Below, piece after piece: positions 1 through 4,382 of a stretch of DNA of 64,000 bases; positions within the stretch are counted from its first letter, which is position 1, and each line of letters begins with the position of its first letter. The translations under genes were made by a program, and so were the position numbers. Source of the DNA: Longimicrobiales bacterium (lineage in GTDB: Bacteria > Gemmatimonadota > Gemmatimonadetes > Longimicrobiales > Gaopeijiaceae); the NCBI GenBank assembly GCA_965202985.1, contig CBDBCF010000001.1, positions 1,888,001 through 1,952,000 on the forward strand, read 5' to 3'. The notes below the pieces were generated by a model. That model was not told where the DNA came from. It ran no database searches and worked only from the letters and a program-made list of their open reading frames with translations.

Positions 1-27
1 ACCCTTCTCAAGGAGCTCGAACGATGA
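1..27 (+). CDS. 3' end of an upstream gene (..TLLKELER*), coupled to the gene at 24
   Basis: Frame 1 is open to TGA at 25-27, which overlaps ATG at 24-26 (ATGA). Confidence 0.5.
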   Translation, partial: TLLKELER

Positions 28-1181
28 AGACGCATGGACAGGCTTTGGTCGGCGTTGCCGTGGCTCTGTCGGCGACCACGCTCGGATGCGAGGGGACCGC
101 CGACGGCGACCCTATGGGCAAGCCCTGGGAGGTGGCCGCGGAACCGTCGGCCACCATCGCATCGATCACCAGGGACGGGCGGGAAGAAGAGCTGTACCGC
201 GTAGCGGACGTGATGCCGCTGGCCGGCGGTGGCATCATCGTCGCCGAACAGACGACCGTCTCGTTCTTCGACGCCGAGGGCCGTTTCCAACGATCCGCGG
301 GTCAAGAGGGAGACGGCCCCGGCGACTTCCGCCAGATTCAGCGCGTCATGCCCGTGGGACCCGATTCCGTAGGGGTCTGGGACACGGAAAACCAGCGCTT
401 CACGGTCCTCGGTCCGGACGGCGGCGTGGGACGCACGGTGCAGCCGCGCCCCATGTTCGGCCACCTGATCCCGGCAGTGGGAGTGCTTGGAAACGGCTCC
501 CTAGTTCTGACCAACGGACTCGACCTTGCGTCGCTCTTCGGCGGCGGGCCCGGGCTGCAAAGACATCCGTTGGCGGCCCTCCGGTATTCGGCCACGTCGG
601 GCGAGCTGATCGACACTTTGGCCACGCTGTCGGGCAGCGAACTAGTCGCATGGGTCCGTGGAGGCTCGTTCTCGTTCCGGCATCTGCCGTTCGGCAAGGT
701 TTCGGCCTTCGCGCTGTCTTCCGATCGCCTCTACGGCGGTTCTGGAGATTCCCAGGAGGTCTCGGCCTGGATCCCGGGGTCGAGCAGCCCGGTCGCCGTC
801 GTCCGATGGGAGAGCAACCCGGTGCCCGTCACGCCTCGCGACCGTGCCGCCTATGAAGAAGAGCGGCTGGCCGGGGCGAGCGAAGACGACCGACAAGCCG
901 AGGCGGACAAGCTTGCGTCGATCGAGTACCCCGAGCACATGCCCCCCTTCAGCGGACTGTTGGCCGACGACGGAGGCCATCTATGGGTCCGAGAAGGGGC
1001 CGCCGCAGCCGACCGAACGCAGGGCTGGCACGTCTTCGGACCGGACGGCGGACGCCGCGGACATGTACGATTGTCGACGGACTTTCGCCTCAAGGCTGTT
1101 CAAGGCAACATGATCTTCGGAGTTCACGAGGACGAAGCAGGGCGGGAAGTTGTTCGGGCATACAGGTTCGCCCGTGACTAG
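24..1181 (+). CDS. 6-bladed beta-propeller (NHL/TolB-like) lipoprotein
   Basis: Signal peptide with lipobox-like TLGC. G-x-EGDGPGDF motif, VWD blade motif, and C-terminal DDGGHLWV / WHVFGPDG / G-x-x-EDE pattern. Confidence 0.8.
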   Translation: MKTHGQALVGVAVALSATTLGCEGTADGDPMGKPWEVAAEPSATIASITRDGREEELYRVADVMPLAGGGIIVAEQTTVSFFDAEGRFQRSAGQEGDGPGDFRQIQRVMPVGPDSVGVWDTENQRFTVLGPDGGVGRTVQPRPMFGHLIPAVGVLGNGSLVLTNGLDLASLFGGGPGLQRHPLAALRYSATSGELIDTLATLSGSELVAWVRGGSFSFRHLPFGKVSAFALSSDRLYGGSGDSQEVSAWIPGSSSPVAVVRWESNPVPVTPRDRAAYEEERLAGASEDDRQAEADKLASIEYPEHMPPFSGLLADDGGHLWVREGAAAADRTQGWHVFGPDGGRRGHVRLSTDFRLKAVQGNMIFGVHEDEAGREVVRAYRFARD

Positions 1182-1701
1182 GGCCGGTGGGCGTCGACCC
1201 GGCTGGCGCGTCTGGCTGCTCGCCGTCCTGCTGTTCGGCTTGGCCGCGCAGATGTCCGGAGTCGCGTTCAGGAACCTGGGCACGACCGATCCCCCTGTAC
1301 GAGAAGTTCAGCTTGCGCAGCCGGCTCCGCTCGCGTTGGGCGACACCCTGCGGTCGTTGGCCGGCACGGTGGTCTACTCCTTCGACTCGAAGTGCGAGCA
1401 CTCCCACGCAGTCGCGCCGGCGTGGGCGGAGCACTTCGCTGCCGCTCCGACGACACCCCGCCTCAAGCGGGCGGCCGTGACTCTCGAGGACCCGGAAACC
1501 GCGGCTCTGTATTCCAAGCGGTTCGGCTGGAACGTTGACGTGCTCAGCACGACGCAGCTTGCACTGGGCGACCGCGAAGTCTCGCTCGTGGACAGGACGC
1601 CGTGGCTGTTCGTCTTCGACTTCGCCGGCGTGCTGCGCTATCAGGGACACGGCGCCGACCTGGAGCAAATGGAAGCGGTCGCGAGGAGCATTGCCGGATG
1701 A
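1174..1701 (+). CDS. Membrane-anchored thioredoxin-fold (TlpA-like) protein with CxxS motif
   Basis: N-terminal hydrophobic segment, YSFDSKCEHS..APAW, and cis-Pro loop RTPWLFVFDFAGVLRY. The GTG start at 1174 overlaps the upstream stop; start position is inferred. Confidence 0.7.
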   Translation: MTRAGGRRPGWRVWLLAVLLFGLAAQMSGVAFRNLGTTDPPVREVQLAQPAPLALGDTLRSLAGTVVYSFDSKCEHSHAVAPAWAEHFAAAPTTPRLKRAAVTLEDPETAALYSKRFGWNVDVLSTTQLALGDREVSLVDRTPWLFVFDFAGVLRYQGHGADLEQMEAVARSIAG

Positions 1702-2918: not shown

Positions 2919-3136
2919 AAAACACCACGAAGTGGATCATCGCCGCCGTCGTCGCCAACGTCCTGCTCCTGCCGCTGACGCTCGCCCCCGAAAAGGAAGC
3001 CGTGGCCGCCCAGCCGCCCGCGACGACCGGCCTGTTCGACTGTTGCGGCGGGTCCGCGGCACGGGCATCTTTCTGCTGCCGTCGGTGTTGCTGGCGTCCG
3101 CTCAGTTGCGCCGGGTGTCCCCCCGCGACGCGCTGA
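2915..3136 (+). CDS. 73-aa secreted cysteine-rich peptide (signal peptide, pro-region, 8-Cys core)
   Basis: MKNTTKWIIAAVVANVLLLPLTLAPEKEAVAAQPPATTGLFDCCGGSAARASFCCRRCCWRPLSCAGCPPATR. ATG overlaps the upstream TGA (ATGA at 2915-2918). Classic n/h signal regions. Fills the gap before the next RBS. Confidence 0.8.
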   Translation: MKNTTKWIIAAVVANVLLLPLTLAPEKEAVAAQPPATTGLFDCCGGSAARASFCCRRCCWRPLSCAGCPPATR

Positions 3137-3161
3137 ACCCGACAGGGAGGAAACTCTAGAG

Positions 3162-4382
3162 ATGGCTACCGACGCCTCCATGCCGGCCAGCCCGTTCCTT
3201 CGGCGAGCCGTGTCCCACTTCGCCAAGCTGGCGGGGCTCTACGCCCTCTACGTGGCCTGGGCGTTCTCGAACGACTACGCAGCGTCCGTCTCGTACTTGC
3301 ACCGCGTCGCCTTGCTGTTCGGCGGGGCTTCGTTCGCGCTGGCGCTGCTGGTCGCTCCCGCGGCGTTCGCCGCGGCCGTCAACCACTTCGATCTCTTCGG
3401 CGAGCGGGCGATCGAGACCCGAAAGCGCGACTGGATTCGCCTTGCCTTGCTGGGACTGGGGGCGTGCTTGCTGCCCGAAGCGGGGATCCCGCTCTCGGAC
3501 TACGTGCTCGACATCGTGGCTCTGGACCGGGTGCGCGGGGTTGGCCAGCCGGGTGCCGACTACGCGAGTGCGCAGCTCTTGGTGCCCGTTGCCGTCGGAA
3601 TCTTCGTAATGATTTCGGGCGTCGCCGGGGCTGCGGTCGGCCATGCAACCGAGTGGTGGGAACCGGTGCGAAGCCACGCGGCAAGATGGTTGACCTTTGT
3701 TGGGTTGGCGATCGTATTCTGGATTCCCGTCTCGGTCGTCACAGATCTTGTGAGGTTCCAGGGTTATCCCCCGGTCTTGACGGTCGTCGTCCCGTCCCTG
3801 CTGCCCGCTTTGGCGACGTGCCTCCTTGTGCGGTCCCAGCGCTACGGCGTGCTGGAAGTGCTGGGCTTGGACCGCCGGCAAGCGGATTGGCTGAACGCGG
3901 AGGCGCTCGAGCGCGTGCTTGACGTGGTGATCCACGAAGACGAAGAGGGCCGCCCGACGATCGAAGAGGCGCTCCACGACGAAGCCGAGTTGGAGACCGC
4001 CAGGTTCCTGCGCGGGCTGAGGCGGGCCATGGCTCCGACGTTCAGGGTCACCGAGGCGGAGGTGGAGAAGATCGTCGCGAAGGTGTTGGCGGCGGCTCCG
4101 GCCCATGCAGTGCCCACGTTGCCTTCGATGTCACGTGCGTCTCGGCTCCGCGACGCTGCCCTGCGGCTTCGGGACGCCACCCTGCGGAGTCTGCCTAGGA
4201 TCGGCGAGTTCGGGCTGTCGTGGATGCTCCTGGCGGCAGGCTTGATGCTGTTCGGACTGTTGGCCGACGTGTCGCCCAGCCCGGTTGCCGCGGTGGCCTT
4301 GGGAGGCCTCGGCGTAGTCGTGCAGGACCTCTTGTCGCGACGGTCCGGCAGGTCCGTCCCAGCCGGGTTGGCGCCGACATGA
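3162..4382 (+). CDS. Polytopic membrane protein of unknown function
   Basis: GGAGG upstream. About 6 hydrophobic segments, a charged helical soluble region, then 2 more hydrophobic segments. Confidence 0.75.
   Translation: MATDASMPASPFLRRAVSHFAKLAGLYALYVAWAFSNDYAASVSYLHRVALLFGGASFALALLVAPAAFAAAVNHFDLFGERAIETRKRDWIRLALLGLGACLLPEAGIPLSDYVLDIVALDRVRGVGQPGADYASAQLLVPVAVGIFVMISGVAGAAVGHATEWWEPVRSHAARWLTFVGLAIVFWIPVSVVTDLVRFQGYPPVLTVVVPSLLPALATCLLVRSQRYGVLEVLGLDRRQADWLNAEALERVLDVVIHEDEEGRPTIEEALHDEAELETARFLRGLRRAMAPTFRVTEAEVEKIVAKVLAAAPAHAVPTLPSMSRASRLRDAALRLRDATLRSLPRIGEFGLSWMLLAAGLMLFGLLADVSPSPVAAVALGGLGVVVQDLLSRRSGRSVPAGLAPT

Follow-up and report, generated by a model that had tools for sequence, protein, structure and literature searches.

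What is the function of a run of genes for two beta-propeller lipoproteins, a thioredoxin-fold protein, an eight-Cys peptide and a membrane protein that overlap or nearly touch one another? The run fills the first 4,382 positions of a 64,000-nt stretch of a Longimicrobiales genome (the window; positions are those of this stretch unless prefixed C1 or C2, which mark contig coordinates of the same genome, or with the L number of a compared locus). A preliminary description of this DNA compared the run with NVEALA-type peptide-propeller loci and proposed a disulfide-peptide system. That picture was incomplete: the core of the locus appears to be an extracytoplasmic function (ECF) sigma factor and an anti-sigma domain, the latter fused into the membrane protein. 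The cassette is real and conserved in Gemmatimonadota, and is a variant of ECF signaling with an unusual sensor. We favor, at odds of about one in two, the reading that the membrane protein is the likely sensor and anti-sigma factor in one chain, and that the eight-Cys peptide (peptide8) is its likely signal or modulator. The sequence-based supports are gene linkage, the LptF-like fold of the membrane protein model, the alternation of a short ("split") and a long ("fused") form of the cassette, a single ECF lineage, and promoter-like motifs.

The membrane protein and the anti-sigma region

None of the five open reading frames (ORFs) in the run scored above Pfam or NCBIfam cutoffs, and the membrane protein was characterized by structural modeling. 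Its residues 1-231 (3162..3854, + strand) form a six-helix LptF/LptG-like domain in a model that is all helical (predicted local distance difference test score, pLDDT, 74). When compared with the PDB, residues 6-229 matched LptF with Z-scores of 13.4, 13.3 and 13.1 (9doh_F, 6mjp_F and 8frl_F) and root-mean-square deviations of 3.7-4.1 Å over 204-211 residues, the best match giving 4.0 Å over 211; the next family scored 8.1. PF03739 matched one split member weakly (E 0.012) and is the precomputed label of one homolog. An acyltransferase assignment fell below cutoff (E 0.028) and was rejected. The domain has the six-helix transmembrane fold of the LptF/LptG permeases of LptB2FG, but it shares only 8-9% identity with them, carries an anti-sigma-like tail, and in the model lacks the periplasmic beta-jellyroll, a 12-residue loop standing in its place. 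A motif scan covering 4 kb around each locus found no ATP-binding cassette (ABC)-like ATPase at any of the 14 fused loci, although one could be encoded elsewhere, and none at 31 of 33 split loci. By the features tested, and as far as the model can be trusted, the protein is not an LptFG transporter, and the exporter role suggested for it in the preliminary description is disfavored by the missing ATPase.

Residues 232-406 (3855..4382, +) comprise a cytoplasmic anti-sigma-like helical region followed by two transmembrane helices, and it was comparison of the two forms that revealed their likely nature. In the split form, a membrane gene of ~260 codons is followed by an ECF gene and a separate gene for a 140-aa protein with the motif C..HxxxCxxC and two helices. 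The fused form adds a cytoplasmic helical region and two helices behind the LptF-like domain, which is homologous to the split-form protein (hhalign 97.7%). C3, H25, C29 and C32 are invariant in the free anti-sigma alignment, which holds 22 of 28 short ORFs, truncated or mis-called ones being left out, and the family matches RsiW (E 6.4e-5, PDB 5wuq). When the fused region was aligned with this family, hhalign gave 69-74% and E 3-5e-5, with a score of 36 vs. at most 18.5 in 25 controls; no anti-sigma protein appeared in the fold-search rows. Residues 233-313 contain no Cys in any of 12 fused members, and the zinc motif has been lost. The membrane protein of the window is thus likely an LptF-like fold fused to a degenerate zinc anti-sigma domain.

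The free and fused versions are distributed accordingly. A free zinc anti-sigma gene is present in 31 of 33 split-form loci vs. none of 14 fused-form loci, and both forms never share one locus. Nineteen further genomes, all of one genus and chosen by their fused protein, were counted by hand from position tables. Peptide8 lies within 3.1 kb of 25 of their 26 fused genes (one of which duplicates a training row) and 5.5 kb from the remaining one; no free anti-sigma gene comes within 40 kb of any fused gene, and of the 43 free anti-sigma genes 30 have peptide8 no more than 2.2 kb away. At one locus (L144), a single TGA-to-CGA change joins the split form and an intact anti-sigma gene in frame. Although found in one genome and possibly an assembly error, this locus would show how fusion can arise by loss of one in-frame stop. 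The free anti-sigma protein has two helices and almost no outside domain, and would therefore need a partner sensor.

The fused form was found in 33 of 301 genomes of the order, in three genera. The metagenome scans turned up no membrane protein like that of the window, and a pattern matched at three loci (L228-L230). Atlas searches gave no usable match for peptide8 and only unnamed clusters, with a score of 0.75, for the split-form membrane protein. At C1:1790011-1790250, an isolated stretch of 80 codons repeats the beginning of the membrane gene of the window with 86% identity.

The sigma factor and predicted promoters

The cognate-clade ECF gene of the window cassette lies nearby and divergently (C1:1886438-1887082, -; Sigma70_r4_2, E 1.7e-10), next to an AraC-type regulator gene (C1:1885715-1886431, -; HTH_18, E 3.6e-10). 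All 12 ECFs of fused-form loci, including this one, fall in one 14-row clade (support 95/95), nested in a 47-row group (91/81) to which every one of the 31 ECFs adjoining free anti-sigma genes belongs. An AraC-type gene occurs within 4 kb in 11 of 14 fused-form vs. 2 of 33 split-form loci. Several split-form operons start with a second ECF gene of a different lineage (L004:7452-8051, L005:8980-9546). At C2:255880-259014, an ECF gene and an AraC-type gene, both related to those of the fused form, stand before genes for another Cys-rich secreted protein and a propeller; neither peptide8 nor a membrane gene is present.

Each form appears to have its own ECF-type promoter motif before the operon. 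TTGCACGyTT-N13-yGTC is enriched before peptide8 operons, one gapped word occurring in 10 of 52 regions vs. 1 of 1004 background regions. In leave-one-out tests the corresponding matrix reached 19 or more at 29 of the 33 split loci, whereas none of the 14 fused loci exceeded 13.9, and its two best sites in the genome precede the two split-form peptide8 operons. A different pattern, AA(A/G)T(C)GAC-N21/22-(G/A)C(G/A)T, drawn by eye, is present in 10 of 14 fused vs. 0 of 33 split loci. It has three matches in the genome vs. 1-4 in shuffled sequence; two of the three lie in fused-form cassettes, and one of these two, a candidate promoter at C1:1887084 (+), stands 122 nt before the gene for an upstream six-Cys peptide (peptide6). 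A stricter version was present in 7 of 28 later loci and at 1 unrelated locus among 288. An unbiased motif search in fused-form loci was dominated by the peptide genes' own signal. The gene context makes it very probable that ECF factor, anti-sigma domain, membrane partner and promoter constitute an autoregulated switch.

Known systems share parts of this arrangement. The zinc anti-sigma systems SigW-RsiW (PDB 5wuq) and DdvS-DdvA (PMC11506125) likewise have a C..HxxxCxxC protein encoded beside an ECF gene and a promoter-like motif before the operon. Unlike those systems, the free anti-sigma protein here has two helices and no outside sensor domain; it is paired with or, without zinc ligands, fused behind an LptF-like protein, and the cassette is linked to a peptide, a thioredoxin and a propeller. 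In SigM-YhdL-YhdK of Bacillus subtilis, two membrane components of one operon also share anti-sigma control; the proposed signal is undecaprenyl phosphate, and control is thought to be allosteric rather than proteolytic (PMC11081497). We compare the two on arrangement, and the available part of that account mentions no peptide, thioredoxin or propeller, unlike the cassette here. The putative anti-sigma proteins of ECF241 offer a precedent for a predicted anti-sigma domain C-terminal of transmembrane helices (10.1101/2019.12.11.873521). These are two-helix proteins of the FecI-like clade with a FecR-like domain, whereas six LptF-like helices precede the zinc anti-sigma-like region here. The results suggest that an ABC-permease fold has been reused, without an ATPase, to do the sensing for an anti-sigma factor, and that an eight-helix membrane protein carries its anti-sigma domain mid-chain. 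No description of the cassette was found in the open-access literature searched, although the supplementary group descriptions of the ECF classification may already list the sigma group.

Peptide8 and its companions

The peptide8 gene (2915..3136, +) encodes a 73-aa precursor in which a signal-like helix is followed by CC-x9-CC-x2-CCW-x4-C-x2-C, confirming the eight Cys residues initially reported. A profile recovered 179 clusters (50% clustering) at E ≤ 0.001, and the full CC-CC-CC-C-C pattern (CC-x-CC-xx-CC-x-C-x-C) was present in 141 of the 151 family proteins collected at that stage; peptide8 is therefore not a chance ORF. It has no Pfam, NCBIfam or PDB family, and no NCBIfam family was matched by more than 1 of 135 members. 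Residue statistics were drawn from these 135 members, chosen for the full Cys pattern. An Asn inside the hydrophobic helix (Asn15 in the window copy) is kept in 131, at a narrow distance of 19-31 residues from the first CC, and a loose test found a small-x-small site after the helix in 122. The Cys core is acidic in 110, while that of the window copy is basic (+3); a cationic antimicrobial family was rejected on the mostly acidic cores. Leaders are of signal type, with no conserved double-glycine leader seen on inspection of the family. The peptide8 model (pLDDT 72, predicted TM-score 0.31) has a helix and a beta-hairpin; neither Foldseek nor a wide structure search matched it, a result that is uninformative on novelty. 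The genome carries five copies, the window's and four paralogs. One paralog, at C2:906400-906933, extends to 177 aa, a length shared by a library protein, and is followed by a 133-aa Cys-containing secreted ORF.

The family is almost confined to Gemmatimonadota, as judged from the genomes sampled. Peptide8 was present in 23 of 201 genomes of its own bacterial family; in a phylum sample it was found in 15 of 47 own-family genomes, in 2 of 125 from a single other family, and in none of the remaining 128. Among the matches listed from a genome-wide DNA pattern scan, most of which were chance matches, 22 of 80 titled loci passed the peptide profile, 20 of them Gemmatimonadota (several Longimicrobiales) and the remaining 2 from one Bryobacterales bin. 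The two Bryobacterales-bin contigs (L099 and L156) have a peptide and gene order near-identical to Longimicrobiales loci, which suggests mis-binning or transfer. A weak partial peptide match at L100 was dropped.

Gene neighborhoods were compared at 62 peptide8 loci, which include near-duplicates and of which 15 lie near contig ends. Within 4 kb of peptide8, thioredoxin-family genes were found at 50, ECF genes at 50, propellers of any kind at 48 and membrane protein genes at 47, the membrane gene being directly downstream in 41. This bears out the recurrent linkage of peptide, thioredoxin, propeller and membrane protein. Only 23 of 36 split-form membrane genes lie near peptide8. In the nineteen further genomes, 55 of 60 peptide8 matches adjoin a fused or free anti-sigma gene. 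At five near-identical loci (L052, L090, L099, L119 and L156), a histidine kinase and a response regulator replace the membrane and anti-sigma genes after peptide8, thioredoxin and propeller; in this two-component subtype the kinase is of the PAS type, an ABC transporter is encoded divergently, and the loci have in common an upstream sequence containing GGGGGAATCTCCCGTCA. At L213:4731-5250 a decayed cassette precedes an intact membrane-ECF-anti-sigma triplet; in it, deletion has joined a shortened thioredoxin gene, the beginning of a propeller gene and the tail of a peptide8 signal.

The thioredoxin-fold protein (1174..1701, +; 175 aa) has an N-terminal membrane anchor and the motif CEHS. Its family profile matches PDI/TlpA-like structures (best E 1.5e-9). 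In the alignment, 19 of 27 members have a one-Cys CxxS/T/A site and 8 have CxxC, with His third in 23; the anchor carries an invariant Gln, and the downstream conserved Pro motif is present as an invariant R-x-P-W. Linkage to the peptide is tight by a profile trained partly on peptide8-neighbor rows, 32 of 34 strong matches lying within 3 kb of peptide8, so thioredoxin genes of this family cannot be said to neighbor Cys-rich peptides rarely. Yeast Eug1p-type disulfide isomerases share the thioredoxin fold with CXXS sites, which alone cannot carry oxidizing equivalents (PMC2195995). This suggests thiol shuffling or trapping, with oxidation supplied elsewhere, perhaps by the CPFC gene product encoded upstream (below). 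Unlike the Eug1p type, the protein here is a single bacterial membrane-anchored domain, and 8 of 27 family members keep CxxC.

Both propellers, propeller 1 (24..1181, +; 385 aa; NHL-repeat PDB matches, E 4.5e-6) and propeller 2 (1698..2918, +; 406 aa), are NHL-like six-bladed lipoproteins by structure-profile matches, and both have an N-terminal hydrophobic stretch ending in GC. DUF5128 matched propeller 1 below cutoff (E 0.011) and propeller 2 not at all. The preliminary description had cast both as partners of the peptide, and the two fared differently. Propeller 2 belongs, in a tree of 150 rows, to a clade of 27 rows drawn entirely from peptide8 loci (SH-like approximate likelihood ratio test 93), in which the lipoprotein Cys is nearly invariant and two internal Cys (233 and 329) are near-invariant. 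Propeller 1 lies outside, among ~90 paralogs (94 ORFs of the genome match the propeller profile), and was rejected as a partner on the tree, though at L226 it directly precedes peptide8. In the nineteen genomes, 24 of 38 propeller-2-clade members lie within 1 kb of peptide8. An immunity or processing role for the lipoproteins found no support. A three-chain complex prediction (propeller 2, membrane domain and peptide8) was uninformative, with a score of 0.01. Across the genome, a simple filter identified 16 small secreted Cys-rich ORFs, of which 14 have a propeller gene no more than 3 kb away vs. 13.6% of random positions; most belong to unrelated peptide families.

Readings of the switch and the wider locus

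In the reading we favor, the ECF factor would transcribe the operon from its own promoter in a self-amplifying loop. Peptide8 would leave through Sec and be oxidized by the general machinery of the cell; the anchored CxHS thioredoxin would reshuffle its four disulfides or trap it as a mixed disulfide. The propeller-2 lipoprotein may then bind or present it, and the LptF-like domain, with no ATPase partner nearby, would sense peptide8 or its Asn-bearing helix, altering the anti-sigma grip. Release of sigma would switch on the cassette and adjacent secreted peptide and propeller genes. Propeller-2 binding or presentation and LptF-like sensing are the weakest steps. A bolder version, which we advance tentatively, is a peptide-autoinduced circuit: a four-disulfide miniprotein pheromone would be read by a transporter-derived LptF-fold receptor that gates the anti-sigma domain directly. 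Each genome would hold several peptide-receptor-sigma channels (five here), orthogonal to one another, and these would govern an extensive set of secreted Cys peptides and propeller lipoproteins.

Several points weigh against the favored reading. Thirteen of 36 split-form membrane genes have no peptide8 in the DNA examined (two at contig ends, one beside a decayed remnant), so sensor, sigma and anti-sigma can stand without the peptide; 14 of 38 propeller-2-clade genes have no peptide8 nearby, and many peptide8 loci lack the propeller-2 clade. The anti-sigma similarity of the fused region is moderate (74%) with the zinc ligands gone, and for a helical bundle a Z of 13 comes close to the level at which the tool advises caution. 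The fused-form promoter pattern was drawn by eye, and its genome count is not above that in shuffles. The nineteen test genomes represent one genus, and near-duplicates are included in the 62 loci. The sensing role of the membrane protein is itself putative.

The peptide-free triplets fit an alternative that we consider possible rather than probable: the same switch, with peptide8 as output, a secreted disulfide miniprotein directed against a host or competitor, and the LptF-like domain sensing lipid, envelope state or some other cue. LptF is a lipid-binding protein, the genome encodes the many unrelated secreted Cys-rich peptides near propellers described above, and the two-protein YhdLK membrane anti-sigma complex is proposed to sense a lipid (PMC11081497). 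Against this alternative, peptide8 immediately precedes the membrane gene at 41 of 62 loci, and its adjacency to an anti-sigma gene in 55 of 60 matches is tighter than exchangeable cargo would give. An unlikely third reading keeps peptide8 unreleased, anchored by its Asn helix as a membrane-complex subunit whose Cys residues report periplasmic redox state or bind metal. Conservation of the Asn at so narrow a distance is unusual for a disposable signal peptide, and the invariant Gln of the thioredoxin anchor, the mostly acidic Cys cores and the zinc-binding type of the free anti-sigma protein are in keeping with it; the small-x-small site, found by a loose test, speaks for release, and disulfides would suit an even number of Cys, a dedicated thioredoxin motif with a His, and a periplasmic setting better than free thiols would. 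A bacteriocin-like cluster of toxic peptide, folding enzyme, immunity propellers and exporter is highly improbable, for despite the basic core of the window's peptide8, the ABC transporter of the two-component subtype, and the Cys peptide, dedicated thiol oxidoreductase (here at 50 of 62 loci) and transmembrane protein shared with bacteroidetocin clusters (PMC6671954), the family is mostly acidic with no conserved double-glycine leader seen on inspection, ABC-like ATPases are missing within 4 kb at 14 of 14 fused and at 31 of 33 split loci, and the membrane gene is associated with genes for sigma and anti-sigma factors. Bacteroidetocin clusters are described there with a double-glycine leader, an ABC peptidase-transporter and four Cys, and the word "propeller" is absent from the main text; by the features tested, the locus here is not a class II bacteriocin or bacteroidetocin cluster.

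Whatever the reading, peptide8 represents a new natural family of ~179 clusters of eight-Cys miniproteins with a matching folding enzyme, and a promoter is predicted for each form. With the sigma factor, the anti-sigma domain and the predicted promoter identified, the switch could be reconstructed in a laboratory strain and the effect of peptide8 assayed there; the peptide-propeller gene pairs that abound in Gemmatimonadota would thereby gain a first function.

The five ORFs and their junctions were confirmed as initially described. An ATGA at 24-27 overlaps the stop of an upstream gene with the propeller 1 start; propeller 1 and the thioredoxin overlap at GTG 1174 and TAG 1179-1181; ATGA overlaps at 1698 and 2915 join thioredoxin to propeller 2 and propeller 2 to peptide8; and a 25-bp gap containing GGAGG separates the peptide8 stop at 3136 from the membrane gene ATG at 3162. 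Upstream sequence, examined as the preliminary description had advised, extends the operon by a membrane-anchored, thioredoxin-like CPFC gene (C1:1887515-1888027, +; Pfam Thioredoxin_2, E 9e-5, below cutoff), whose last codons occupy window positions 1..27, and by the gene for peptide6, a 67-aa secreted peptide with six Cys (C1:1887206-1887409, +); the divergent ECF and AraC-type genes lie farther upstream. The likely operon order, read from the sequence, is peptide6, CxxC thioredoxin, propeller 1, CxxS thioredoxin, propeller 2, peptide8 and membrane protein. By its gene associations the locus is two cassettes joined, because propeller 1 travels with peptide6 and the CPFC gene, and propeller 2 with peptide8. 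At L226, in another genus, a single uninterrupted series is made up of ECF, AraC, peptide6, CPFC gene, propeller 1, peptide8 and the membrane gene.

A DoxX-family gene (window 4465-4884, -) and an amidohydrolase gene (5117-6529, +) flank the cassette, and their recurrence with it was not seen. Upstream of the window, at C1:1880773-1885458, the gene for a secreted protein of 466 aa precedes a tandem array of three genes for mutually paralogous secreted proteins of ~350 aa, one of them shorter or broken; the three have no Pfam family and lie in a lower-GC stretch.

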